Shown: piece by piece, positions 1-16,233 of the stretch
How the letters are laid out: the number at the start of each line of letters is the position of its first letter
How positions within the stretch are numbered: the first letter of the stretch is position 1
DNA from: a virus
DNA length: 16,233 nucleotides
Virus record (IMG/VR): IMGVR_UViG_3300035703_002363
Coordinates: 1-16,233 of that record
Reading direction: 5' to 3' (one strand)
Notes under the pieces: model-generated
Databases searched by the model: none
The model's input: the letters and a program-made list of their open reading frames with translations, nothing else
Told to the model about the DNA's origin: nothing
Translations under genes and position numbers: made by a program

Positions 1-127
1 GGGGGACCACGGGGGCGGCGGCCTGGGTGGGGGTGCCGGTTGCGGCGAGGTCGGCGACGGGCGCCGGGTCGCTGTTGCCGGTGACCTCGGCGCGCTGGGC
101 GGCGAGGTGGGCCTGGAGCTGCTCGTC
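1..127. repeat. Terminal overlap copy 1 (identical to 16107-16233); most likely an assembly circularisation overlap
   Basis: Base-by-base comparison shows 1-127 equals 16107-16233 exactly. The match stops at 16106. 127 is a common maximal assembler k-mer. Confidence 0.9.
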
Positions 128-784
128 GTGCTGCTCCTTGGTGATGGTGCCCGCGCGGAGAGCCGCGGCGAGCTGTGCGGGGTTCATGTGGTGCTCCTTT
201 TCAGGGTCGGTGATGATGGTCGCGGAGATGCTGCTGACTCCCGCTTCGGCGACGGCAGGGACCGCGCAGAGGGAGAGCTCGTACCAGTCCGCGCGAAGAA
301 CGTGAAGGTTCCAGTCCTCGTCGAACTCGTAGTCGTAGATGGAGAAGCCGACGGAGACGCCGTCGCGCAGCTTCTGCTCGTATTCGGTTTTGACTCGCTC
401 GGCCTCGGAGTCGGCGATCTCGAAGCTGGCCGACTGCACGGCGTCGTCGACCTCGATGCAGTAGCCGACGGGCTGCGCGTGGTCGTGGTCGCGCAGCATC
501 TTGACCGCCGAGAGGGGCGTGCGGGGCACGAGGGCACCGGCGTGGATGATGGCGCCGTGCGACTCGATGAGCTCGTCGTAGCGGGTGATCGTGTCGCACT
601 TGACGGTGAGTTTTCCGTTGCCGTCGACGGCGAGGGTCACGGGGCGCGCGGCGGTGCGCAGGCTGATCTCGGGAAGCTTGGTGAGAGTGCCGGCGGCGAG
701 TTCCGTGCAGGCCTGCACGTAGCGGGGGCCGGTGAGGAGCCCGGCGCGGTTGAGGGCGTCGAGTTGGCGGCGGTTGGGTTTCAC
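1..784 (-). CDS. 5' part of a 594-aa prohead protease (HK97/S78 family)-major capsid fusion ORF, join(15106..16106,1..784) on the circle
   Basis: Absent from the ORF track because it runs off the window edge. Manual minus-strand translation from GTG 784-782 (GTGA overlap with portal stop) is open down to position 1: VKPNRRQLDALNRAG...SAVKMLRDHDHAQPVGYCIEV...KLRDGVSVGFSIYDYEF...ADWYELSLCAVPA... It shows the His motif (HD..PVG) and the GxSxGF Ser motif of HK97-type proteases. The frame (position mod 3 = 1) matches the GTG at 10, which equals 16116. Confidence 0.85.
   Translation of the reverse strand, partial: MKPNRRQLDALNRAGLLTGPRYVQACTELAAGTLTKLPEISLRTAARPVTLAVDGNGKLTVKCDTITRYDELIESHGAIIHAGALVPRTPLSAVKMLRDHDHAQPVGYCIEVDDAVQSASFEIADSEAERVKTEYEQKLRDGVSVGFSIYDYEFDEDWNLHVLRADWYELSLCAVPAVAEAGVSSISATIITDPEKEHHMNPAQLAAALRAGTITKEQHDEQLQAHLAAQRAEVTGNSDPAPVADLAATGTPTQAAAPVVP
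185..199 (-). promoter_or_regulatory. Internal ribosome-binding site plus in-frame ATG at the protease/capsid boundary
   Basis: Minus strand reads GAAAAGGAGCACCACATG. AAGGAG lies at 199->194, a 6-nt spacer follows, and ATG lies at 187->185 in the fusion ORF frame. Translation then reads MNPAQLAAALRAGTITKEQHDEQLQ... (395 aa to the stop at 15106). Confidence 0.6.
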
Positions 785-1905
785 GGGGTCTCCTGCGTGG
801 TCGGGGTCCAGCCCTCTTGAGCTGCGATCCAGTCGGTCGTGATGTAGCCGCCCTCGAGGCCGAGGTTGTAGGTCTCGAAGCGGGTCTTTTGGTCGGGGCG
901 GGTGAGGGAGTCGATGTCGATCTCGACCTGCCATCCGCGCGGGGTCACGTCTGACATCGAGAGGCGGTCTTTCACTGCCTGGTGGAACGGCGCGAGGCTG
1001 AGGTCGATGAGTTCCCAGTTGCGGAGGCTGCGGTTGTCATAGGTGAGCGTCGCGCCGTCGACGGCCGTGGATGCCGCCCATGCCGGGAGGGACATGTGGC
1101 GCACGAGTTCGAGGCTGAGAGCTCGGCGCCCCTCGATGAGCAGCTGCGGGGTGTGCTGGCCGTGGGCGATGGCCTTGAGGTTCTTGGAGGTGTAGGCGAC
1201 GCCGGTCTGCTTGCGTCGGGTGGTCCATCGCTCCATGAGCGCGTCGATCTGTGTGTCGTCGAGGTCGGGGCCTTCGTTGTGGAGCTCGAAGGCGGGGACG
1301 GGGTTGTCTTCGGCTAGGGCTGCGGCGAGTTCGATCGCCATGCCTCGGCGGATGGTCTTGTTCGCACGGTCGAGCAGACCTTCGCCGTGGGGTGAGTCGA
1401 ACCGAATGACATCGCGCGGTGCGATGGGCGTGGTGCCGTCGTGGGTGATGGTCGTGCCGTCGGCGCTGGGTCGGGCGTTGCCGGGCGAGACGCGCAGGAC
1501 CTTGGATGGCCAGTCGTAAGAGTCGCGTTCGATGACGCGCCACCAAGCGACGCCGTAGAAGAGCAGGTCGTCGTAGAGCCAGGTGTAGGTGATGCTGCGG
1601 GGGATGCCGGGCTCGGGTTGCTGGAAGAGTGCGGGCTGGCGGGGCGCTCGGGCGCCGTTGATCTTCAGGTAGTGCTCGAGTCGACCGCAGGTGCCGGCGA
1701 TGACCTGGCGGCCGGTGGCGACGGTGCCGATGGTGAGGGCGTTGCGGCGACTGACGGGGATGTAGTCGCCGAGTTCGTAGAGTTCGGCAAGAGTGACGAC
1801 GGAGAGGATGTCGTCGGCGCGCCAGGGTGAGGCGACGCCGAGGCGCTGTGTGCGGCGCGGCGTGAGGCCGATGCGGTTGGCGAGGCGAGCGAGAGGTCCG
1901 GGCAC
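781..1905 (-). CDS. Portal protein (HK97-family-like)
   Basis: 374-aa ORF between TerL and the protease-capsid gene. Portal-like sequence: ...TYTWLYDDLLFYGVAWWRVIERD... The only in-frame start after an upstream TGA is GTG at 1905. Confidence 0.85.
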   Translation of the reverse strand: MPGPLARLANRIGLTPRRTQRLGVASPWRADDILSVVTLAELYELGDYIPVSRRNALTIGTVATGRQVIAGTCGRLEHYLKINGARAPRQPALFQQPEPGIPRSITYTWLYDDLLFYGVAWWRVIERDSYDWPSKVLRVSPGNARPSADGTTITHDGTTPIAPRDVIRFDSPHGEGLLDRANKTIRRGMAIELAAALAEDNPVPAFELHNEGPDLDDTQIDALMERWTTRRKQTGVAYTSKNLKAIAHGQHTPQLLIEGRRALSLELVRHMSLPAWAASTAVDGATLTYDNRSLRNWELIDLSLAPFHQAVKDRLSMSDVTPRGWQVEIDIDSLTRPDQKTRFETYNLGLEGGYITTDWIAAQEGWTPTTQETP

Positions 1906-1972: not shown

Positions 1973-3457
1973 TTAGTAGACGCGGGCGGTTTCTGCCGGC
2001 GCTCCTCGGTGGTCGTAGAGCCAGATGCCGACGGCTGAGCCGATCGGGAAGATGATGGGGCCGGTCGATTCTGATCGTGAGAATCGAGTGAGGTCGCCGA
2101 CGCGCTTGAGCACGAGGTGGGCGAGGCCGAGGGTCATGGTGCGGGATCCATCGAGCTTGAGTTGGCGATCGCGGAACATGGTCACCCAGCCTTCGCAGCT
2201 GGTGCCGAAGTCTCGCGCGCCGACGGTGGTGATGGCTTCGTCGCCGAGGGTGCGGCGTAGTTGATCGGTGAGTCGTCGTGTTGCGCCGCCGTCATCGCCG
2301 CCGACGACGATGGGCGCGTGCTTGTGCACGAGGTCGACGATGTAGTCATGCATCCACATCGAGCCGGGCGCGACGTGCAGCACGCGGGTCACGGGTGCGT
2401 CGTCGATGTCGCGCCAGGTGGCAAACACGCCGCCGAGCTCATTGTCGGGCGCGATCTCGTAGGTGAGCGCGATCTCGGAGAGGCTCGGGATGCTCTCGGG
2501 GTCGCGGGTGTTGGCGGTGACCTCTTCGCTGCTGAACAGGGGGTCGGATGCTTCGAGCCAGACGTTGCAGAATGCACGCAGCCACGTCGCGCGCGAGACC
2601 TGCCCGCTGATCTCCATGAGCGCGTCGAGCGACATCGTGTGCCCGACTGCAGGGTGGAATGCGGCGATCGCGCGGCGGTCGTATGGGTCTGCGCCGTCGG
2701 GCAGTGCGGCCTCGAAGTAGGCGAGGCGCTGGTTGCTGCCGGGCTTGAGCACCGACTCGCGGCCACGCTCGACCCACTTGCGCATGAACGTCGAGCGGGC
2801 ATCGCCCGCGGTGGAGAGCAGCCATATCTGTCGCTGCCCTGCGAGGGTCACCTGAGCGGGAATGATGGCGCCCTCGAGTATCGCGTCGCCGAGGGCTTCG
2901 TCGAGTTCCCAGATTTCATCCATGCCGACGAGGGGCGGGGTCTCGCCGTGGAGGGCTGCGACGACGGGGGCGAATAGCTTGAGTGCTGAGCCGTTCGGGA
3001 ACAGGATGCCCTCGTCGCCTGCCGAGTATCGGTAGCGGAGCATGCTGTCGAGGGGCGAGTCCTGCACGAGTGAGACGAGGTCGCCGAATCGTGAGCGTGC
3101 GTCTTTGCCGGTTTGCGCCGTGTAGAACGTCTTGATGGCGGGCATCGTGATGCATCGGTCGAGCTGCACGGGCCCGTAGAGCGTGGTCTTGCCGGATTGG
3201 CGGGGAACGGTGACGAACACGATCTCGTAGACGAGCTCGCCGAACGAGCCGCGCTCGAGCGCGGTATCCCAGACTTGCCGCTGCCAGGGCATGCCGGGCT
3301 TGCCGATTCCGGCCGCGATCTTGGCCACTCTGCCGCCGTCGGTTCGGGCGCCGGCGTTGCGAGGGGTGGCGTATTTGAAGCCGCTCCACTGGATGCACTC
3401 GTCGTCGTGCCCGGGTTCGAGCACGCAGTCGTCGAGTGCGCAGCGTGGCACGGTCAC
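1973..3457 (-). CDS. terL: Terminase large subunit
   Basis: Trimmed from track ORF 1973..3988 to GTG 3457, which overlaps the upstream stop as GTGA (494 aa). Walker A motif VTVPRQSGKTT is present, followed by the ...LVGMDEIWE... Walker B region and a C-terminal nuclease-like half. The upstream extension is Arg/Pro-rich out-of-frame-type sequence overlapping TerS and HNH. Confidence 0.93.
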   Translation of the reverse strand: MTVPRCALDDCVLEPGHDDECIQWSGFKYATPRNAGARTDGGRVAKIAAGIGKPGMPWQRQVWDTALERGSFGELVYEIVFVTVPRQSGKTTLYGPVQLDRCITMPAIKTFYTAQTGKDARSRFGDLVSLVQDSPLDSMLRYRYSAGDEGILFPNGSALKLFAPVVAALHGETPPLVGMDEIWELDEALGDAILEGAIIPAQVTLAGQRQIWLLSTAGDARSTFMRKWVERGRESVLKPGSNQRLAYFEAALPDGADPYDRRAIAAFHPAVGHTMSLDALMEISGQVSRATWLRAFCNVWLEASDPLFSSEEVTANTRDPESIPSLSEIALTYEIAPDNELGGVFATWRDIDDAPVTRVLHVAPGSMWMHDYIVDLVHKHAPIVVGGDDGGATRRLTDQLRRTLGDEAITTVGARDFGTSCEGWVTMFRDRQLKLDGSRTMTLGLAHLVLKRVGDLTRFSRSESTGPIIFPIGSAVGIWLYDHRGAPAETARVY

Positions 3458-3777
3458 GCGCTGTCTTTCAGGCTGTCGACGAACGCATCGAACCGATCCA
3501 TGATGTCTTTGTCGGCGGGTGCGGGTAGTGCCATGAGGGTCTCGCGCAGCTGGGCGGCTGCCATGGCGGCGGCGGATGCTCGGCCGCGGCTGTTGCCGTG
3601 GGCGACGGCGTCGGCGAGCTCGAGCGCGAGTTGGGCCAGGCCAGCGTGCCGAGGTTGGAGCAGCTTGTCGTCGTGCAGGGCTTGGATCGTGGTGATGACG
3701 GCGTCGCGGAGGGCGCTTTGACGTGAGCCGAGTTCTAGGCCGTCGAGCATCGGCTGGTTCGGGTTGTCGGTCGTCAT
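3454..3777 (-). CDS. Putative terminase small subunit
   Basis: 107-aa helical protein immediately upstream of TerL and translationally coupled to it. Called from position and composition only. Confidence 0.5.
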   Translation of the reverse strand: MTTDNPNQPMLDGLELGSRQSALRDAVITTIQALHDDKLLQPRHAGLAQLALELADAVAHGNSRGRASAAAMAAAQLRETLMALPAPADKDIMDRFDAFVDSLKDSA

Positions 3778-3860
3778 CGTTTTCTCGTCTTGGTCGTTTT
3801 CGGGGTTTTTCTGGGCGGTGTGGGGAGAAATGGAAGGGGCTGCGCGCGGGTTTCCAGGGG
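3778..3860. other. Non-coding gap between HNH and TerS; candidate cos/packaging-site region
   Basis: The largest non-coding gap in the late region. It is locally T-tract rich (tttt 3780-3783, tttt 3797-3800, ttttt 3806-3810). In HNH-dependent cos phages the HNH gene sits at one genome end and terS at the other. Confidence 0.25.
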
Positions 3861-4163
3861 CTAGCGGCTAAAGAACGCGAGGCCGTCCTCCACGATGTGG
3901 TTGGCATCGGTGGCGTCGCGATTGCCTCGTGCGCTGTTGCATGAGCGGTGTGAGGGTCCGAGGTTGACGAGGTCGTAGACCGCGCCACCCTTGGAGCGGG
4001 GGATGATGTGGTCGGCGCTGTTCGACCCGGGCAGACCGCAGAGCCAGCACGTCGTGCCGTACTCGGCGAGTGTCATGCGCACGTACTGCTGAGCCTTCCG
4101 GCCACCCCACTTCTCTTCGGGTGCTTCGGGGTCTGCGTACCTGCCCGGGCCTCGGCGGATCAC
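3861..4163 (-). CDS. HNH endonuclease (terminase-associated type)
   Basis: 100 aa with CWLCG...ADHIIPRSKGG...NLGPSHRSCNSARGN (CxxC, DH, N and HxxCN elements of the HNH fold). GTG start overlaps the upstream stop as GTGA. Confidence 0.9.
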   Translation of the reverse strand: MIRRGPGRYADPEAPEEKWGGRKAQQYVRMTLAEYGTTCWLCGLPGSNSADHIIPRSKGGAVYDLVNLGPSHRSCNSARGNRDATDANHIVEDGLAFFSR

Positions 4164-5179: not shown

Positions 5180-5511
5180 GCGGCTGCCTCCTGGCTGCTC
5201 TTGTTGGTGATCTGGTGCCAGTGGTTGGCGACGGTCGAGCGAGAGACGCCGATGGTCACTGCGATCTCGACTTGGCTGTAGCCGAGTTCGGCGAGCTGGC
5301 GTGCGTAGCCCATGCGTTCGTCAGTCATGCGAACCCACGTGCGTCGTCGCTCGGGTGCAGTCGGCGGGGTGCTGGGGCGCTTGACGGACTCGATGGCTTT
5401 GGCTGCGATCAAGCCGCCGACATCCGTGCCCTGCTCTCGTGCGGGGCGCTCCCAGGCTCGGTAGACCGATGCGGGAATGCTCACCCTGACGGTGATCGTG
5501 TCCTCGGTCAT
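5176..5511 (-). CDS. DNA-binding protein, RHH-like N-terminus plus HTH C-terminus (possible Cro/early regulator)
   Basis: N-terminus ITVRVSIPASVYRAWERPAREQG resembles a ribbon-helix-helix strand and helix. C-terminus YARQLAELGYSQVEIAVTIGVSRSTVANHW is a clear helix-turn-helix. Confidence 0.65.
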   Translation of the reverse strand: MTEDTITVRVSIPASVYRAWERPAREQGTDVGGLIAAKAIESVKRPSTPPTAPERRRTWVRMTDERMGYARQLAELGYSQVEIAVTIGVSRSTVANHWHQITNKSSQEAAA

Positions 5512-6074
5512 GCGCTCACCCGCTCTCGAAGGTCAGCGCCGCAGTTCAGACAGCATCCGGTGTCGAGTCGCACGTGCTCGCCCGTGGGCGAGATACGTGC
5601 CGAGACGGGGCACTCGCGCGCGCGCGCGAGATGGTGAGGTTCTTTGTTAAGTCTTGTGGTTGGTTTAGTGGATGGTTCGGGTGTCGCTACCGACACCCCA
5701 CTCGCGTCGGATTCGACACCGGGTGTCGGATTCGACACCCCTCCTTCGAACAAGTTGAGACGAGCTGCAGAACGGTGACGGTGGTTCTTTGACCGGTCGC
5801 ACGTGGAGGGGCATTCGAGAATGACCCGATAGAGGTTTGGGCGGTGGCTGTCGGCGATTGAGCTGGGCCCGCCGCCTTGTAGCACGACCTCGATCTCGCG
5901 CAGTCGCACGAGAGTCTCGATGGCCTTCTGCACGTTGCGACGGGTGACGTTGGCGTATCGGGCAAGCGTGTCGATCGAAGGCCAAGCGCCACCGTCGCCG
6001 TCGTGGTTGGCGATGCCGAGCAACACGACCTTGGCGGTAGCAGTGGCTCGACTGTGGTGGAGGCACACGGTCAT
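5508..6074 (-). CDS. Winged-HTH DNA-binding protein, putative replication initiator (lambda O-like logic)
   Basis: Trimmed to ATG 6074 (188 aa). N-terminus AKVVLLGIANHDGDGGAWPSIDTLARYANVTRRNVQKAIETLVRLREIEVV...RPNLYRV is a wHTH of the type seen in phage/plasmid initiator-like proteins. A palindrome array and an AT-rich patch lie in the linker region. The C-terminus is Cys-rich (CPVS...CCLNC). Confidence 0.6.
   Translation of the reverse strand: MTVCLHHSRATATAKVVLLGIANHDGDGGAWPSIDTLARYANVTRRNVQKAIETLVRLREIEVVLQGGGPSSIADSHRPNLYRVILECPSTCDRSKNHRHRSAARLNLFEGGVSNPTPGVESDASGVSVATPEPSTKPTTRLNKEPHHLARARECPVSARISPTGEHVRLDTGCCLNCGADLRERVSA
5679..5740. repeat. Cluster of three related palindromic sites (iteron-like) inside the initiator-like gene
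   Basis: 5679-5698 reads GGGTGTCGctacCGACACCC. 5721-5740 reads GGGTGTCGgattCGACACCC. A degenerate copy lies at 5702-5720 (tcgcGTCGgattCGACACC). A 15-nt direct repeat gtcggattcgacacc occurs at 5706-5720 and 5725-5739. Confidence 0.85.
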
Positions 6075-6085
6075 GGATTCGACGC

Positions 6086-6202
6086 TCACGGCACGATCTG
6101 CCAGTTGATGAGGGCGAGCATCCAGAACACGGCGGCGATTGAGAACGCAGCCACGGTGAGAGTGCTGATGACGAGCGCCGGGTGAGGGGTCTTCTGCTTC
6201 AT
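6086..6202 (-). CDS. Small membrane peptide (38 aa, one TM helix), first ORF of the leftward operon
   Basis: Not in the track. Manual translation: MKQKTPHPALVISTLTVAAFSIAAVFWMLALINWQIVP. High GC3. The ATG sits 7 nt downstream of a candidate -10, so the transcript looks leaderless. Confidence 0.5.
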   Translation of the reverse strand: MKQKTPHPALVISTLTVAAFSIAAVFWMLALINWQIVP

Positions 6203-6290
6203 GCGGCCATGATGGCACATTTCACCACTCTGACAAATGCAGATTTGGCGGCGTGTTGTGCAGAGGGTGGCAATCTGCCAAACTTCTCAC
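6203..6290. promoter_or_regulatory. Divergent early/immunity control region with candidate promoters and a palindromic operator
   Basis: Non-coding and locally lower in GC. Leftward: TTGTCA (rc of 6231-6236), 16 nt, then CATCAT (rc of 6209-6214), 6 nt before ATG 6202. Rightward: TTGTGC 6256-6261, 18 nt, then AAACTT 6280-6285, 5 nt before ATG 6291. Palindrome TGGCAatcTGCCA at 6268-6280. Confidence 0.3.
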
Positions 6291-6611
6291 ATGACGATGA
6301 CAATGCTCCAATTCGAGACGCATGACTACGTTCGAAAGGCCGTCGAGGTCGCTGGGCTTAGTGCCGGCGACTTCGCGAGTGCGTTGGGGGTCTCTCGAAA
6401 CACCGTTAGCCGATGGCTGAACGGGCGAGCTCGCCCCAGTACCGCGCAGATGATCGCCATCTCGGTCGTGACGGGAGTGTCACTAGAATGGCTGACTCAA
6501 GGTGTGGCGCGCCCGGAGGGACTCGAACCCCCAACCTTCTGTTCTGTAGCCGACGACGACCTCGCGCTCGAGCTCGCCTTCCTCACCATCGTCGAGCCGG
6601 TGATGGCATGA
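6291..6611 (+). CDS. Cro/C1 (XRE)-type HTH repressor, full-length 'viral' form (106 aa; alternative start 6237)
   Basis: HTH motif LSAGDFASALGVSRNTVSRWLNGRARPSTAQMIAISVVTGVSLEWL. Transcribed divergently from the early operon. The 3' end contains the tRNA-like attP core, which encodes ...VARPEGLEPPTFCS... Confidence 0.8.
   Translation: MTMTMLQFETHDYVRKAVEVAGLSAGDFASALGVSRNTVSRWLNGRARPSTAQMIAISVVTGVSLEWLTQGVARPEGLEPPTFCSVADDDLALELAFLTIVEPVMA
6505..6549 (-). other. 3' fragment of a tRNA-Arg(ACG)-like gene; candidate attP common core
   Basis: Minus strand reads CTACAGA-ACAGA-AGGTT-GGGGG-TTCGAGT-CCCTC-CGGGCGC-G-CCA. That order is anticodon-loop-like, stem, variable loop, T arm with canonical TTCGAGT loop, acceptor 3' strand, discriminator and CCA. 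No matching 5' acceptor strand (GCGCCCG) lies upstream, so it is a fragment and not a gene. Confidence 0.75.
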
Positions 6612-7540: not shown

Positions 7541-7811
7541 CGACCCGTACCGCCCGTACCCCTGGTGGACTCGCGTGTGGCCGCTGAGCCGCATCTACTT
7601 CGCGGGCTGGCAGCGAGGCGAGGAGGCCGGGATTGCGCGCGGTCGGTTCCAGATGGGCGACCCAGCATCGCCCGATTTCAGCAAAGAACCGGAGCCCGGA
7701 ACGTTAGACGCTCGGGGCTCCGGTGAGATGTCTTTGCGAGACCCCGTAAGCATACCAAATACTCCTGATTCCGGGGCGGTGTCGGGGGTTCCCGATACAA
7801 ACTCACCATGA
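7533..7811 (+). CDS. Hypothetical protein (92 aa), Trp-rich N-terminus and disordered C-terminus (possible RDF, unproven)
   Basis: Trimmed from track ORF 7380..7811 to ATG 7533 (AGGAGAG SD, ATGGATGA overlap). Sequence begins MDDDPYRPYPWWTRVWPLSRIYFAGWQRGEE... It ends in an ATGA overlap with the int start. Confidence 0.5.
   Translation: MDDDPYRPYPWWTRVWPLSRIYFAGWQRGEEAGIARGRFQMGDPASPDFSKEPEPGTLDARGSGEMSLRDPVSIPNTPDSGAVSGVPDTNSP
7688..7724 (+). promoter_or_regulatory. 10-bp perfect inverted repeat (stem-loop or protein-binding site) about 85 nt upstream of int
   Basis: ACCGGAGCCC at 7688-7697, a 17-nt spacer, then GGGCTCCGGT at 7715-7724. A lower-GC stretch follows with a weak sigma70-like pair: TTGCGA 7734-7739, 18 nt, then AATACT. 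Confidence 0.4.
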
Positions 7812-8620
7812 CTCTTTCGCAATCATGGTGCCAGGCGATCGACGAATACCTCGAGCACGCCACCGCTGCGGGAGCACCGCAGACAACCCGCTACACACGA
7901 GAGCAACACCTGCAACACCTAGCCCGACGCGTCGAGGCCGAACCGTGGGCGCTCACCGGGGCTGAACTCGTCACCTATGCCGCTGCGCAGACTTGGGCCG
8001 CTGAGACTCGACGCGGGCGCCGCTCGACCTTCCTGTCGTTCTACCGGTGGGCGATCGCAACAGGCCGCACCGACACCAACCCTGCGCTCTCCCTGCCCCG
8101 CGTGAAGGCCGCAATGGGCAAGGCTCGACCCACGCCCGAACTCGTCTACCGTGAGGCCGTCGCCGCGGGTGACGTGCGCGCCCGCCTCATCCTGAGACTC
8201 GCCGCCGAGGTCGGGCTGCGCCGTTCCGAGATCGCGCGCATCCACTCACGAGACCTCATGCAAGACCTCGTCGGCTGGTCGCTCGTCGTGCACGGCAAGG
8301 GAGACCGTGAGCGCATCGTGCCGCTCCCTGACGGCCTCGCACGAGTGCTGCGCGCGCTCCCCTCGGGGTTCGCGTTCCCGGGCGACGACGGCGGGCACCT
8401 GTCCCCGCGCTGGGTGGGCAAGATCGCCACCCGACTACTGCCCGGCGACTTCACCCTCCACACGTTGCGCCACCGGTTCGCGACGCTCGCCTATCAAGTC
8501 GACCGTGACGTGTTCGTGGTGCAAGAGCTGCTCGGCCATTCGAGCCCGGCGACGACGAGGCGCTACGTGCAAACCCAGCACGAGCACCTACGCCGCACGG
8601 TGGTCGCTGTCGCCGACTAG
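7808..8620 (+). CDS. int: Tyrosine integrase (short XerC/D-like; no obvious arm-binding N-terminal domain)
   Basis: 270 aa. SAM-like core-binding N-terminus (...FLSFYRWAIATGRTDTNPA). Catalytic set present: R (GLRRSEI), K (VHGKGDRER), HxxR (HTLRHRFAT), H (LLGHSS) and Y (TTRRYV). Confidence 0.93.
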   Translation: MTLSQSWCQAIDEYLEHATAAGAPQTTRYTREQHLQHLARRVEAEPWALTGAELVTYAAAQTWAAETRRGRRSTFLSFYRWAIATGRTDTNPALSLPRVKAAMGKARPTPELVYREAVAAGDVRARLILRLAAEVGLRRSEIARIHSRDLMQDLVGWSLVVHGKGDRERIVPLPDGLARVLRALPSGFAFPGDDGGHLSPRWVGKIATRLLPGDFTLHTLRHRFATLAYQVDRDVFVVQELLGHSSPATTRRYVQTQHEHLRRTVVAVAD

Positions 8621-12018: not shown

Positions 12019-13121
12019 GTGCCCACTTCCCTTCCCTCACGAGTGACGAGGCGAGCGCGCACGACGAGCGGATTGCGGTCGAAACTGCCTTGTGTGCTGC
12101 GTCTGATGGCTTCGGTGTCGGGTTCTGCGAGTTCCGTGCGGATGGTGATCGGGGCGCGGCCAGCGGCCTCGCTGTAGCGGCGCCCCAAGGCATCCCAGCG
12201 CTGTTCTTCGACTGATCGCACACGAGCCACCTCGTCGCGCTGTTCGGCGCTCTGCTCGACGATGAGGTCCTGATATTGGCTTGCGGCGTCGCGGTTTTCT
12301 GCGTGGGTGTCGCTAAGGCCGATGAGTTTGTCGCGCACGGTGTCGATCGCGATCACTGCGGGCGACCATGACTCACCACCTCGCGCCGAGTCGAGCTCGT
12401 GGACGAGGTCGCCGCTGGCGCTGGTTGCTTGCGCGATCGCGTACTCGAGCGCATCGGCGTCGCCCGCGAGCGCGCGAATATAGGTGTTCGTGTCGACGCC
12501 GATCTTTGCGGCGTCGGCGGCGGCGGCGTCTCGTTTGCTTGAGTCGAAGAGGATCTCGGCGGCGGCGGCAATGATGGTGGCCTCGTCGAGGTAGTTGCGG
12601 CCTTCTTCGGCTGCGGCCTTGTATGCCTCGGCGAGTGACTCCTTTAGTTCTTTGGCACTGTCGAGTTGATTGACGATCGTCGTGGTGACGAGGCCAAGCC
12701 CTGCGGCGCCTGCGGCGACTGCGGCAATGGCGGGGATGCCTCGGAGACCACCGACGAGACCACCGAGGGTGCTTTGCGCTGCGTCGGCGATCGATTCGAA
12801 TGAGCCGTCGAAGCTAGAGAACATCTCGGCGGCGTTTTGTTTGGCCTCGTTGGTGACCTCGTCGAGTTGGCTCTCGACGCGATCGCCAGACCTCTTGAAG
12901 TTGCGGACCATCTTGTCGCCCGCTTCATCGCTCTCGCGGTCGACGACCTTGGTTAGGTCTTTAAAGCTGCGCTCTAGTTTCTCGGTGGCCTTGTCGCCGT
13001 CGCGGGCGACATCGTCGAGGCTGTCGGAGACTTGGTCGAGGGCTTCGCCGATGTCGTCGGTGCCTTTGAGAAACCGGCGAATGTCAGAGATGAAGTTGAT
13101 GACGATACCTTTACCGGCCAT
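12015..13121 (-). CDS. Tape measure protein (short, 368 aa)
   Basis: Trimmed from track ORF 12015..13514 to ATG 13121 (ATGA overlap). Long helical, Ala/Asp/Glu-rich sequence with a Gly-rich hydrophobic segment LGGLVGGLRGIPAIAAVAAGAAGLGLVTTTIV, typical of tape measure proteins. Confidence 0.78.
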   Translation of the reverse strand: MAGKGIVINFISDIRRFLKGTDDIGEALDQVSDSLDDVARDGDKATEKLERSFKDLTKVVDRESDEAGDKMVRNFKRSGDRVESQLDEVTNEAKQNAAEMFSSFDGSFESIADAAQSTLGGLVGGLRGIPAIAAVAAGAAGLGLVTTTIVNQLDSAKELKESLAEAYKAAAEEGRNYLDEATIIAAAAEILFDSSKRDAAAADAAKIGVDTNTYIRALAGDADALEYAIAQATSASGDLVHELDSARGGESWSPAVIAIDTVRDKLIGLSDTHAENRDAASQYQDLIVEQSAEQRDEVARVRSVEEQRWDALGRRYSEAAGRAPITIRTELAEPDTEAIRRSTQGSFDRNPLVVRARLVTREGREVGT

Positions 13122-13630
13122 CAGCTGCTCCCTTCTGCATCGGCGAGGTCTCGGAGGGTGTCGACGATTGCGACGACGGATCCGGCCACGTAGGCGCGGC
13201 CCACTTGGCTGGCTGCGTCGAATGCGATGCGGCCTTGTTTCACTCGTCCGGGGAATTGGCGGTTGAGTGTTCGGGTGACGGTGTGGGTGCCGCCGTTCGG
13301 GTTGCGGCGGGTGTAGCGGGCTCGGAAGTTGCGGGCTCCGAACTCGATACCAGGCCAGTCCTGAGCGGGTACGAACCCGCCCCGTAGGGCTCGGCGGCTG
13401 GTGGCGGCGCGGACGCCGATGCCGTTGGTCGACACCGAGGCGCCCGCGCCGCGCAGCATGACGAGGCGTTCGAAACCACCGCTCTTGGTTCTGCTCTCGA
13501 GTTCTCGACGCCACCGTGGGGTGACTTCCTGCCGTGCGGCTGCGGTCATCGCGCTGCGCACGGTTGAGGGGGCACGCTTCATCGCCAGGATGGTTGCCTG
13601 GAGTGGAGCGTTGTCGAGGATGGAGAGCAT
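13121..13630 (-). CDS. HK97 gp10-like tail-completion/neck-type protein in the slot usually held by tail assembly chaperones
   Basis: 169 aa. N-terminus LQATILAMKRAPSTVRSAMTAAARQEV and an IEFGARN (EFG) motif resemble the HK97 gp10 family as I recall it. No slippery sequence was seen. Confidence 0.4.
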   Translation of the reverse strand: MLSILDNAPLQATILAMKRAPSTVRSAMTAAARQEVTPRWRRELESRTKSGGFERLVMLRGAGASVSTNGIGVRAATSRRALRGGFVPAQDWPGIEFGARNFRARYTRRNPNGGTHTVTRTLNRQFPGRVKQGRIAFDAASQVGRAYVAGSVVAIVDTLRDLADAEGSS

Positions 13631-15105: not shown

Positions 15106-16233
15106 CTAGGTGGGCAGGACCTCGTCGTAGGTGCGCTTGACGATCAGACGGGGGTCGTGGTCGTCGAGACGCAGGTACGAGAACACGCCGATGTCGACGC
15201 CGCCCTTGGGCACGTTGTCCGCGTAGACCTGGAACGGCGCGCGCTCTTTGACCATGAGGGCCCGGTTGTCGAAGGCGACGACCTGGTTGGCGGCGAGCGT
15301 GGAGTCGTGCTCGAGCACGGTGCCGCCGATGGTGCCGGTCTCCTCAGAGAAGTCCATGCCCACGTTGGCGGTGCGCAGCCACAGCGGCAGGGTGTCGCTG
15401 TTGAGGTCTTCGAAGGCGTCCCACATCGTGGTGCCGAGGAAGAACCGGTTGGCGCGGCCTCCGTCGATGCTGTTGACATCGCGGCGCAGCTGCTTGAGCA
15501 GCGCGAGCACGCTACCCGTGCCGACGGTCTCGGTGCCGCCGACGGTGGCGCCGGGGGCCTGAGCGGCGGCGAGCACGCGGGTTCGGATGCCGGCGTTCGA
15601 CTTCTGGCGGTAGCTCTTGGCGACAGCCTCGAGGAACGATGCGGTGAACTCGGGGTCGGCGAAGTCGATAAACGCGCGGTCGACATCCCATCCGGCCGCG
15701 ATGCGGAAGGCCGTGAAGGTGTCGGAGACGGTCGAGATGTCGTTCGAGGGCACCTCGGTCTTGTTGCCGCTGTACTCGTCGACCTCGGGTGCTTCGCCCT
15801 CGGTCCAGCGCCACCCCTTGCCCTTGAGGCTCGTGAGGGGGCCGGGGGTGCCGATAGCGTCGATCCAGGGGCGGCGCGCGTCCTCGGCTTCGAACAGTTT
15901 GCCGAGCCACTCGGTGCGCAGGAATGCCTCGCCCGCGTCGTCGGCGGGGATCACGTCGCTGATCGCGAGCATGACGCGCTGCGGCTGTCCAGTCTGCGCG
16001 GCGGCGGCGATGTGCTGCGCTGCGGTCTGGAGCGAGAAGCCGCGGTCGCGGGTCTCCAGTTGGGGGCGGTGCGGCGCGACGGGCTCGGGTCCGGCCGCGA
16101 CGTTGAGGGGGACCACGGGGGCGGCGGCCTGGGTGGGGGTGCCGGTTGCGGCGAGGTCGGCGACGGGCGCCGGGTCGCTGTTGCCGGTGACCTCGGCGCG
16201 CTGGGCGGCGAGGTGGGCCTGGAGCTGCTCGTC
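15106..16233 (-). CDS. Major capsid protein (HK97-fold type), 3' part of the protease-capsid fusion ORF
   Basis: Track ORF 15106..16116 remains open upstream to the window end. It continues in frame into 1..784 through the 127-bp overlap. Capsid-like sequence: ...KGKGWRWTEGEAPEVDEYSGNKTEVPSN...RIAAGWDVDRAFIDF...LGTTMWDAFEDL... Confidence 0.88.
   Translation of the reverse strand, partial: DEQLQAHLAAQRAEVTGNSDPAPVADLAATGTPTQAAAPVVPLNVAAGPEPVAPHRPQLETRDRGFSLQTAAQHIAAAAQTGQPQRVMLAISDVIPADDAGEAFLRTEWLGKLFEAEDARRPWIDAIGTPGPLTSLKGKGWRWTEGEAPEVDEYSGNKTEVPSNDISTVSDTFTAFRIAAGWDVDRAFIDFADPEFTASFLEAVAKSYRQKSNAGIRTRVLAAAQAPGATVGGTETVGTGSVLALLKQLRRDVNSIDGGRANRFFLGTTMWDAFEDLNSDTLPLWLRTANVGMDFSEETGTIGGTVLEHDSTLAANQVVAFDNRALMVKERAPFQVYADNVPKGGVDIGVFSYLRLDDHDPRLIVKRTYDEVLPT
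16107..16233. repeat. Terminal overlap copy 2 (identical to 1-127)
   Basis: Same as copy 1. Confidence 0.9.

Follow-up and report, generated by a model that had tools for sequence, protein, structure and literature searches.

Where a prohead protease and a major capsid protein are encoded by a single open reading frame, it is natural to ask whether that frame yields one polyprotein or two nested products. We examined such a locus in the window, by which we mean the whole 16,233-nt stretch of viral DNA analyzed here (IMG/VR record IMGVR_UViG_3300035703_002363). Positions 1-127 of the window are identical to positions 16107-16233, identifying a circular phage contig with a unit of 16,106 bp, in which terminase, portal, tape measure, endolysin and integrase genes are found. 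The element is a 16.1-kb temperate siphovirus of Microbacteriaceae that carries an integrase and a repressor; relatives were found in Microbacterium, Rhodoglobus, Gryllotalpicola and Protaetiibacter, and they include prophages. We propose, with a probability of roughly three in four, that the locus is a nested in-frame gene pair encoding a protease-delta-capsid protein and, from an internal start, a delta-capsid protein.

The protease and capsid domains share one unbroken ORF, located between the portal and head-tail adaptor genes, and no separate scaffold or protease gene was found between the portal and head-tail genes of the window. The ORF (594 aa, minus strand) runs stop-free from the GTG at 784 across the circular junction to the TAG at 15108-15106. 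The absence of a stop between the protease and capsid regions and the continuity of the frame over the circular junction to 15106 had both been noted in an earlier, sequence-only reading of this DNA; both points are borne out, and the first is conserved among relatives. The GTG at 784 aligns with the MNRxQL N-termini of homologues and, at 784-782, overlaps the TGA of the portal ORF (781-1905) as GTGA. The locus comprises the following features, in the order of translation.

781 to 1905, minus strand: portal gene (PHROG 12 portal, 3.9e-15), with its TGA stop at 783-781.
782 to 784, minus strand: GTG at which the 594-aa protease-delta-capsid ORF starts, with AGGAG-N5 before it (ΔG -7.4).
692 to 784, minus strand: SHOCT-like two-helix motif, residues 1-31 (AF2 helices 5-13 and 19-30), which repeats the motif after Met200.
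260 to 667, minus strand: prohead serine protease domain, residues ~40-175, from PHROG 80, AF2 and Foldseek.
188 to 256, minus strand: disordered inter-domain linker, residues 177-199 (AF2 pLDDT ~30), encoded by A/C-rich, G-poor RNA that includes the candidate internal ribosome-binding site.
194 to 202, minus strand: internal Shine-Dalgarno sequence GAAAAGGAG, with its AAGGAG core at 199-194 (ΔG -8.5); a purine-rich GGA/GAGG core is present in 39/39 relatives.
185 to 187, minus strand: internal in-frame ATG, Met200, the proposed start of the 395-aa delta-capsid protein.
1 to 187, minus strand: residues 200-261, the beginning of the delta/scaffold-like region (AF2 helices 202-210 and 216-236, then disordered).
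15976 to 16106, minus strand: rest of the delta-like region, residues ~262-305, past the circular junction, with the 15976 edge placed from the PADDAG motif.
15106 to 16032, minus strand: HK97-fold major capsid body, residues ~287-594, from Foldseek and PHROG 2263, with the TAG stop at 15108-15106.
16107 to 16233, no strand: 127-bp terminal duplicate of window positions 1-127, an assembly overlap of the circular contig that adds no sequence.

A search of the PDB by sequence with the family profile returned nothing useful, and the folds were therefore taken from AF2 models and Foldseek. For the protease half, the window protein matches PHROG 80 'head maturation protease' (7e-14), and its match to Pfam S78 (PF04586; E 0.0023, 18.5 bits) falls under the 21-bit gathering cut-off, with 26 of 44 aligned homologues matching this family at E <= 1e-3 (best 9e-9). 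The AF2 model of residues 1-199 has a pLDDT of 86. The top Foldseek matches of the protease domain in BFVD are HK97-family proheadases (E 4e-10 to 1e-6), and those in the PDB are almost exclusively herpesvirus assemblins (E 5e-3 to 0.2, probability <=0.99); as modeled, the protease domain thus has an assemblin-like fold. Neither H100, in an RDHDH motif, nor S144, in DGxSVGF, varies among 44-46 homologues, and we take them to be the catalytic pair by analogy with H65 and S114 of HK97 gp4. The SHOCT-like motif that precedes the protease resembles the sequence following Met200, with an hhalign probability of 97.6% (E 3e-12) between the two profiles, and the SHOCT Pfam family is matched by 18/44 homologues.

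In the AF2 model, Met200 falls exactly at the end of the disordered linker, ahead of a confident helix, and residues 238-283 are again of low confidence and disordered. A D-V-x-P-A-D-D-A-G block is conserved among homologues, and we presume that the delta boundary drawn from PADDAG corresponds to the mature N-terminus of HK97 gp5. The capsid body matches the PDB structures of the D3, phiXacJX1, SaPI1, HK97 and Bxb1 capsids in Foldseek (E 1e-11 to 1e-8), with target-normalized TM scores of 0.55-0.68, and matches the PHROG 2263 major head protein at 1e-56. Of the domain assignments made previously from the letters alone, the S78-like protease in residues 1-199 and the HK97-type capsid are supported by both the profile and the structural matches, and residues 200-236 of the delta/scaffold-like N-terminus are predicted to be helical.

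The AAGGAG-N6-ATG reported by the sequence-only reading at 199-185, in frame and giving a 395-aa product, is present as described, with a 6-nt spacer (193-188) between AAGGAG and the ATG. This motif occurs once in the window against 0.08 expected occurrences, and at least one match was seen in 16 of 200 dinucleotide shuffles, so the window by itself cannot show that the motif exceeds chance. An anti-SD ΔG of -8 or lower was reached before 111 of the 1136 ATG or GTG triplets on both strands of the window. Since the ΔG criterion is unspecific on the G-rich non-coding strand, we used same-strand, same-gene backgrounds across homologues. The comparison set consists of 39 non-redundant loci from IMG/VR, GTDB, JGI and Logan with 29-93% aa identity; these loci share a phylogeny, such that a count of 39/39 overstates the number of independent observations, a bias mitigated by the several codon solutions for the motif and by its recurrence in four cultured lineages that are unrelated, as described below. 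The close relative L037 (93% aa) was set aside for synonymous constraint, being too similar to inform.

Across this set, all 39 loci have 175 or more open codons in frame ahead of the protease/capsid junction, and the codon at the identical alignment position of the junction is ATG in 33 and GTG in 6, with no other codon observed. The anti-SD duplex at the junction has a median ΔG of -9.8 (range -12.9 to -6.6), comparable to the medians of true starts, which are -9.5 for the fusion N-terminus (n=13) and -8.7 for the downstream gene (n=24). At the remaining in-frame ATG or GTG codons, 728 in all, the median is -2.5, and only 3.2% of them reach -8.3. Codon choice in positions -7 to -1 relative to the junction is strongly skewed: arginine is encoded by CGA in 25/43 cases versus 7% elsewhere, glutamate by GAA in 29/43 versus 14%, and glycine by GGA in 5/6 versus 8%. 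Furthermore, the GGA/GAGG core is kept under the peptides RKE, EKE, REE, QEG, QRG, QEE, GKD, KGE and TKEE, in several codon registers. This use of otherwise rare CGA, GAA and GGA codons in several registers indicates selection on the internal SD at the nucleotide level. With the internal SD-ATG under such selection family-wide, two products are the best reading of the locus.

The RNA around the junction has related properties. Family-wide, the 30 nt before the junction contain 32% A versus 16% in the capsid body, and the 60-nt MFE at the junction is -13.8 versus a background of -19.4. The junction ranks among the least-structured 10% of segments in 17/39 loci (median rank 0.13). Junction RNA is thus less structured than background, a moderate difference that lends slight support to an internal start. 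The junction also appears in relatives with a non-homologous, ClpP-type protease (PF00574), which retain KExxM-NRAQLAAAL at this position. Judging from these sequences, the junction is independent of the protease module, being unchanged where the ClpP-type enzyme replaces S78.

The same arrangement was observed in cultured phages. Internal SD-starts are present at the protease/capsid border of Mariposa gp7 (residue 160, ΔG -9.2), Root gp6 (residue 178, ΔG -9.8), RRH1 orf7 (residue 274, ΔG -9.3) and gp5 of the cluster EE phage Anseraureola (residue 166, ΔG -9.6), and in none of the four is another internal SD-start as strong as the border site, where a second strong one exists at all. When 118 fused proteins were surveyed at the protein level, 108 carried a Met, or a Val leading into the NRAQL motif, at a distance of 9-40 residues past the S78 C-terminal motif; in the ~10 others, which are distant, neither residue is obvious at the border. 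Stand-alone capsid genes starting at the junction Met were sought as signs of a separate-gene state; the best candidate, a 400-aa protein (P0065), was rejected, as its frame is open upstream into an S78 C-terminus on a 1.3-kb contig. A gene caller had independently taken the internal SD-ATG as the start on this truncated contig. Two distant short matches (P0139 and P0200) are apparently stand-alone capsid genes, and their N-termini differ.

The sequence-only reading had proposed two products, with the fusion in the minority and the capsid protein abundant. Two translation products are likely given the sequence, with the internal start signal conserved in 39/39 loci, but SD strength gives no ground for an excess of the short product. 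We rejected SD strength as evidence for a minority fusion because the SD of the upstream start is equally good (median -9.5 vs -9.8). In 37/39 loci, the upstream start and the portal stop share an (A/G)TGA, and it is plausible from this arrangement that the fusion is kept at low copy by translational coupling to the low-copy portal gene. We envisage that ribosomes initiating at GTG 784, where translation would be coupled to portal termination, would produce the 594-aa polyprotein, consisting in order of the SHOCT-like motif, the S78/assemblin-fold serine protease, the delta (scaffold-like) region and the HK97-fold capsid body. Ribosomes initiating on the internal GAAAAGGAG-N6-ATG in the unstructured linker would start at Met200 and produce the 395-aa delta-capsid protein as the bulk building block. 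The delta and capsid parts are common to both products, which would allow the fusion to co-assemble with the short one, and a few fusion subunits, their protease domains pointing into the interior, would be built into the procapsid shell. The enzyme would subsequently remove the delta regions and itself, at cleavage sites that would leave each subunit as mature capsid protein.

The main alternative to a nested gene pair is a single polyprotein, in which every subunit is a protease-delta-capsid protein that processes itself after assembly and the K-E...M at the border reflects an amino-acid requirement, for cleavage or as a hinge. All public annotations give one CDS, in agreement with this alternative and with the description of such genes as a 'protease-scaffold-capsid fusion' (PMC7302621). 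P2 gpO, with protease and scaffold as one protein, provides a precedent, the upstream start has a good SD, and by a rough volume estimate a capsid built only of fusion subunits is sterically possible. However, an amino-acid constraint leaves the rare CGA, GAA and GGA codons unexplained, and the GGA core survives changes of both peptide and register. The junction codon is strictly ATG or GTG, and the pattern recurs in lineages with unrelated flanking peptides, in a region that is predicted to be disordered and is variable save for the SD-encoding residues and the Met. We consequently regard the single polyprotein as unlikely.

The SD-like sequence might instead act as a programmed translational pause that lets the protease fold first, with the adjacent Met being incidental. 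A pausing effect of internal SD-like sequences on bacterial ribosomes has been suggested; the suggestion is disputed, and later work put the effect largely down to a profiling artefact. A pause would suit the position of the motif, exactly at the domain border and in a disordered linker. It would need no start codon 6-10 nt downstream, yet ATG or GTG is found there in 39/39 loci, nor would it require locally unstructured, A-rich RNA, and we consider a pause very improbable. The chances are equally slim that the internal SD and start are an unused relic of a once-separate capsid gene whose upstream stop was lost. An ancestor with separate genes would fit the apparently stand-alone capsid genes among the weaker matches (P0139 and P0200). 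However, synonymous sites are saturated at 30-50% aa identity, so an unused relic would decay, whereas the rare codons are kept and none of the lineages examined lacks the motif, even where the protease belongs to a different family. Finally, an assembly or sequencing artefact, conceivable for an ORF that spans the contig junction of a window with a 127-bp assembly overlap, is effectively refuted by an identical 594-aa protein in the Logan protein collection (P0001), a 93%-identical unbroken ORF within a Microbacterium MAG contig (L037), and unbroken ORFs in 38 more assemblies made independently and in four cultured phages finished by Sanger or Illumina sequencing.

The proposed nested gene pair can be compared with several known systems. 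The fusion phages of clusters AN and EE are among the closest, with a single ORF for protease, scaffold-like region and HK97 capsid that follows the portal gene and precedes the head-tail adaptor gene in a 14-18 kb siphovirus of an actinobacterial host; the window protein is ~33% identical to cluster AN gp7 over 89% of the protein (E 1e-57). These phages are lytic, whereas the element in the window is temperate, and their genes are published as one CDS without an internal start, though the nested SD-ATG is present there too. The sequence-only reading had likened the locus to lambda C/Nu3 with a different partner, and the locus would indeed work in a similar way, as a variant of that scheme. 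In lambda, the protease ORF likewise holds an in-frame internal start with its own RBS, and Nu3 is a scaffold that shares the C-terminal part of the long product, which brings the protease into the procapsid. In contrast to the window, where the shared part would be the delta region and capsid protein, the part shared in lambda is a free scaffold and the capsid protein E has a separate gene. Lambda C is an S49/ClpP-like protease; the protease in the window is of the S78 type, and the relatives with ClpP-type enzymes are closer to lambda in this respect.

HSV-1 UL26/UL26.5 has the protease fold in common with the window, as the top PDB matches in Foldseek are herpesvirus assemblins, and similarly combines a long protease product with an abundant short product that is in frame and 3´-coterminal, the protease being incorporated via the shared part. 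UL26.5 differs in having its own promoter and mRNA rather than an internal RBS, and in that the shared part is the scaffold, not the major capsid protein. HK97 also has an S78-type protease, and a capsid protein of the HK97 fold with an N-terminal delta of ~100 residues that the protease cuts off, but gp4 and gp5 are separate genes. A C-terminal tail of its own directs HK97 gp4 to the procapsid; with no stop between protease and capsid in the window, targeting would be by covalent linkage. A re-annotation of the kind we propose has been made for gp17/gp17.5 of HFTV1, annotated as a single protease-scaffold fusion, for which ribosome profiling and LC-MS/MS revealed an internal in-frame start that yields the scaffold (bioRxiv 10.64898/2026.09.13.751334). 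HFTV1 is an archaeal virus whose partner is a free scaffold and whose internal start is experimentally proven; the internal start in the window is a predicted one. P2 gpO resembles the long product in joining an N-terminal protease and an assembly domain in one self-cleaving polypeptide; as summarized in bioRxiv 10.64898/2026.09.13.751334, gpO is reportedly made as the full-length protein only, and it stands for the fusion-only model.

The sequence-only reading had treated the fusion as something of a curiosity and mentioned similar fusions in small Microbacterium phages. Such fusions do occur there (PMC7302621, PMC9671004), but genes of this kind are routinely annotated as fusions in small actinobacteriophages, and protease-capsid fusions have been described as a hallmark of the smallest siphoviruses. 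In the literature searched (subscription journals excepted), the fusion is much described, an internal start in a protease-capsid fusion is nowhere proposed or tested, and neither the ratio of protease to capsid nor whether all subunits carry the protease is addressed. The fusion itself is well known, and the nested start is the apparently new element, unrecorded in published annotations; if used, this conserved start would account for the stoichiometry.

On balance, we lean toward extending the nested arrangement to every gene annotated as 'major capsid and protease fusion' in small actinobacteriophages, and to those of related prophages. This extension may cover more than 100 sequenced phages (AN, EE, RRH1-like and others) with S78 or ClpP-type proteases, each of which may make a low-copy polyprotein coupled to the portal gene and a high-copy delta-capsid protein from the conserved internal RBS. 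Such loci would represent a third solution to protease encapsidation, in which the protease rides covalently on a capsid subunit and two starts set the stoichiometry. The capsid protein would then be a new partner in the nested protease/scaffold scheme of lambda, herpesviruses and an archaeal tailed virus, and a gene in many SEA-PHAGES genomes would need re-annotation. If the internal start is unused, its strong nucleotide-level conservation would need another explanation. In the S78 subfamily, the SHOCT-like sequence MNRxQLxALxAG opens both the fusion and the sequence starting at Met200 and, were nested genes the rule throughout these phages, may serve as an assembly signal that has to stand at a free N-terminus.

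The 594-aa fusion ORF, which joins a protease, a helical scaffold-like region (delta) and a capsid protein in one frame, runs on the minus strand from GTG 784 across the circular junction to TAG 15108-15106, and an identical 594-aa protein (P0001) is present in the Logan protein collection. Residue 200 is encoded by an ATG in frame (187-185), with gaAAAGGAG lying upstream across a 6-nt spacer; on re-reading the sequence, the coordinates that the sequence-only reading had given for the ORF, the circular crossing and this internal SD-ATG were all correct. In this one window, the AAGGAG-N6-ATG arrangement is statistically unremarkable (0.08 expected by chance, present in 16/200 shuffles), and K-E dipeptides alone yield SD-like hexamers in high-GC genomes. 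A second AAGGAG (134-139, minus strand), 55 nt 3´ of the internal ATG, encodes K-E in the conserved 'TITKEQHD', with no start codon following it there. PHROG scans of the window detected no separate protease or scaffold gene.

Features of the window (PHROG scan unless noted)
3861-4163, minus strand: HNH endonuclease
1973-3988 (longest ORF, 671 aa, GTG 3988), minus strand: large terminase
781-1905, minus strand: portal
GTG 784 to TAG 15108-15106 across the junction, minus strand: fusion ORF (read from the sequence)
692-784 and 98-187, minus strand: SHOCT-like repeat 'MNRxQLxALxAGxIT' (hhalign)
minus strand: small head-tail genes, then a major-tail-like gene
13121-13630, minus strand: chaperone-like gene, 169 aa
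12015-13514 (longest ORF), minus strand: tape measure
minus strand: 581-aa protein, endolysin, small holin-like and minor-tail-like proteins
5508-6218, minus strand: replication-initiator O-like gene
6237-6611, plus strand: repressor
7808-8620, plus strand: tyrosine integrase, 270 aa

Conservation of the internal start was assessed at the nucleotide level for 39 non-redundant junctions (29-93% aa identity) from IMG/VR, GTDB genomes, JGI metagenomes and Logan contigs. In 39/39 loci, no stop codon interrupts the frame in at least the 175 codons before the junction, and the Met200 position of the alignment holds either ATG (33 loci) or GTG (6). SD strength, calculated as the energy of pairing with the 16S 3´ end, had a median dG of -9.8 at the junction (range -12.9 to -6.6; n = 39), compared with -9.5 at the fusion N-terminal start (n = 13), -8.7 at the start of the downstream gene (n = 24) and -2.5 at other in-frame ATG or GTG codons of the same ORFs (n = 728), 3.2% of which reach -8.3. 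Over the seven codons before the junction start, Arg is encoded by CGA in 25/43 cases (7% elsewhere in these genes), Glu by GAA in 29/43 (14% elsewhere) and Gly by GGA in 5/6 (8% elsewhere). The commonest solution is CGA-AAG-GAA, reading GAAAGGA; the junction peptides of other lineages are EKE, REE, QEG, QRG, QEE/QED, GKD, KGE and TKEE. Since a GGA/GAGG core is kept 6-12 nt before the start under all these peptides, in differing codon registers, the pattern is characteristic of selection acting on the RNA rather than the peptide. The junction is preceded by 30 nt that are G-poor with 32% A (versus 16%), and RNA folding is somewhat weaker there than elsewhere in the gene (60-nt MFE -13.8 versus -19.4). 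Internal initiation is thus strongly supported by comparative evidence.

The arrangement also persists where the protease itself differs. In ~15/39 loci (relatives of this kind are L010, L014-L016 and L018-L027) and in the proteins P0052, P0054, P0055 and P0057, S78 is replaced by a non-homologous ClpP/S49-type protease domain (PF00574/PF01972). The ClpP-type fusions have a homologous delta-capsid part and exactly the same SD-ATG junction ('...RKExR' followed directly by 'MNR(A/E)QLAAALAAG'), a protease module swap that preserves both the no-stop frame and the internal start. In four cultured phages with unrelated flanking peptides, the protease/capsid border again carries the internal SD-start that is strongest in the gene or the only strong one.

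Internal SD-starts at the protease/capsid border of cultured phages
Mariposa gp7, residue 160: AGGAAAGAGGcagtaATG, dG -9.2
Root gp6, residue 178: CGAAAGGAActgcacgacATG, dG -9.8
RRH1 orf7, residue 274: CCGGAAGGAAccccagccATG, then MNRDQLIAQL, dG -9.3
Anseraureola gp5 (cluster EE), residue 166: CGAGAGGAcacccccaacATG, dG -9.6

A library-wide search with the capsid part gave 520 relatives; most of the best 150 measure 480-640 aa, and their capsid match begins at residue 150-250. Among 118 fused proteins with an S78 C-terminal motif, 99 have a Met 9-40 residues after that motif, typically preceded by K/E/G-rich tripeptides, and 9 more have Val followed by the NRAQL motif. For P0065, encoded on a truncated 1339-bp Logan contig (L064, SRR20614907; gene 117-1319), the collection's gene caller took the internal SD-ATG (gatGGAGGGaacaggATG) as the start, even though no stop interrupts the frame between there and the contig edge and an S78 C-terminus is encoded in it. 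An algorithm has thus independently judged the site to resemble a true start.

A fusion-only gene giving a single polyprotein, like P2 gpO, is an unlikely reading of these junctions, failing on the rare-codon SD, on the restriction of the junction codon to ATG or GTG and on the recurrence of the site in unrelated linkers. We consider it very improbable that the SD-like sequence is a pause site, which needs no start codon, and give equally little credence to a decaying relic, which is contradicted by upkeep of SD and start at saturating divergence. An assembly artefact is ruled out by independent assemblies and finished phage genomes.

The domain assignments of the sequence-only reading, an N-terminal protease and a C-terminal HK97-type capsid protein, were borne out. 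An AlphaFold2 model from a 44-sequence alignment predicted a beta-rich domain well (residues ~40-175), followed by a disordered linker (177-199, pLDDT ~30), confident helices (202-210 and 216-236), a disordered stretch (238-283) and an HK97-type body (287-594). Foldseek matched this body to the capsid proteins of D3, phiXacJX1, SaPI1 and HK97 (E 1e-11 to 1e-9), and the PHROG scan matched it to PHROG 2263 'major head protein' (1e-56). Modelled alone (pLDDT 86), the N-terminal domain matches HK97-family prohead proteases (Foldseek BFVD, E 4e-10); its PDB matches, weak but consistent, are almost only herpesvirus assemblins. The Pfam S78 check suggested earlier succeeded for 26/44 homologues, whereas the window protein itself falls below the cut-off. 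Given these Foldseek matches, the PHROG 80 match (7e-14), Pfam S78 in homologues and invariant H100 and S144, the predicted protease and capsid identities are confirmed as sound.

The S78 subfamily carries a conserved repeat: residues 1 to ~29 of the long product (MNRxQLxALLxAGLITxxQ) share homology with the 29 after Met200 (MNRAQLAAALAAGTITQEQ; hhalign probability 97.6%, E 3e-12), which would give both proposed products one and the same two-helix motif at the N-terminus. Pfam SHOCT matches this motif in 18/44 members, and ClpP-type fusions have no N-terminal copy. Because the nucleotide sequences of the two copies are unlike, the repeat is old and kept at the protein level. One possibility is that the motif is a free N-terminal assembly or oligomerisation signal.

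The best reading of the locus is a nested gene pair, in which the long product would be a protease-delta-capsid polyprotein and the short product a 395-aa delta-capsid protein from the internal start. Because the delta and capsid parts are common to both, the long form could occupy a site in the capsid lattice while its protease is enclosed by the shell, and cleavage would turn both forms into an identical mature subunit. By its resemblance to the corresponding part of HK97 gp5, the mature N-terminus may lie shortly before the conserved PADDAG block (~residues 300-310). SD strength is equal at the two starts and so says nothing on the relative abundance of the products. The one indirect argument for a rare long form is an (A/G)TGA overlap between the fusion-ORF start and the end of the portal gene in 37/39 loci (GTGA at 781-784, minus strand, in the window), which suggests coupled expression of the long form at the low level of the portal, a 12-copy protein; the internal site, in contrast, looks like a free-standing RBS in unstructured RNA. 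The pair would operate as do lambda C/Nu3, HSV-1 UL26/UL26.5 (with the same protease fold) and HFTV1 gp17/gp17.5 (recently demonstrated experimentally), except that here the shared part would be the capsid protein itself. The internal start would thus be a capsid-sharing variation on a nested protease/scaffold scheme already known rather than a novel type of system.

The protease-capsid fusion as such is known and common. In tblastn against GenBank phages, Arthrobacter phages of cluster AN, Curtobacterium phage Root and others were matched at ~33% identity. Fused genes have been described in clusters AM, AU and AN and in RRH1 (Klyczek et al. 2017, PMC5513430), by Jacobs-Sera et al., in cluster EE (PMC9671004) and in thaumarchaeal proviruses (PMC6563490), and the parallel with small Microbacterium phages drawn in the sequence-only reading was right. 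Our searches of the literature found no description of internal initiation in such fusions; it bears on annotation and assembly stoichiometry and is testable in the cultured phages.

Window positions 1-127 recur exactly at 16107-16233. Such a direct terminal repeat is what an assembler using k=127 leaves at the ends of a circular contig; without the duplicate, the unit measures 16,106 bp (65.7% G+C). An ORF listing without wrap-around misses the fusion ORF and gives only a 336-aa piece (15106-16116). Given its repressor, tyrosine integrase and replication-initiator O-like gene, the phage is a very small (16.1 kb) temperate siphovirus, whereas the cultured AN and EE small-genome phages with the same fusion are described as lytic. 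Relatives were found in Microbacterium, Rhodoglobus, Gryllotalpicola and Protaetiibacter genomes and MAGs, some inside large Microbacteriaceae contigs (L038, 225 kb; L041, 554 kb; L042, 133 kb). One relative (42% identity) lies on a 41-kb contig (L043, DATLXE010000350.1) of a 'Gemmatimonadaceae' MAG, whereas all other host assignments are Microbacteriaceae; this contig, from a phage or prophage, may have been mis-binned. The 671-aa terminase ORF has no SD at GTG 3988 and overlaps the HNH gene; with homologues of 472-495 aa and a PHROG match from residue 214 onwards, its true start probably lies well downstream. There is an overlap of ~390 nt between the longest tape-measure ORF and the 169-aa chaperone-like gene, and a strong SD-ATG at 13121 (dG -12.3), overlapping the stop of that gene, is the likelier tape-measure start.
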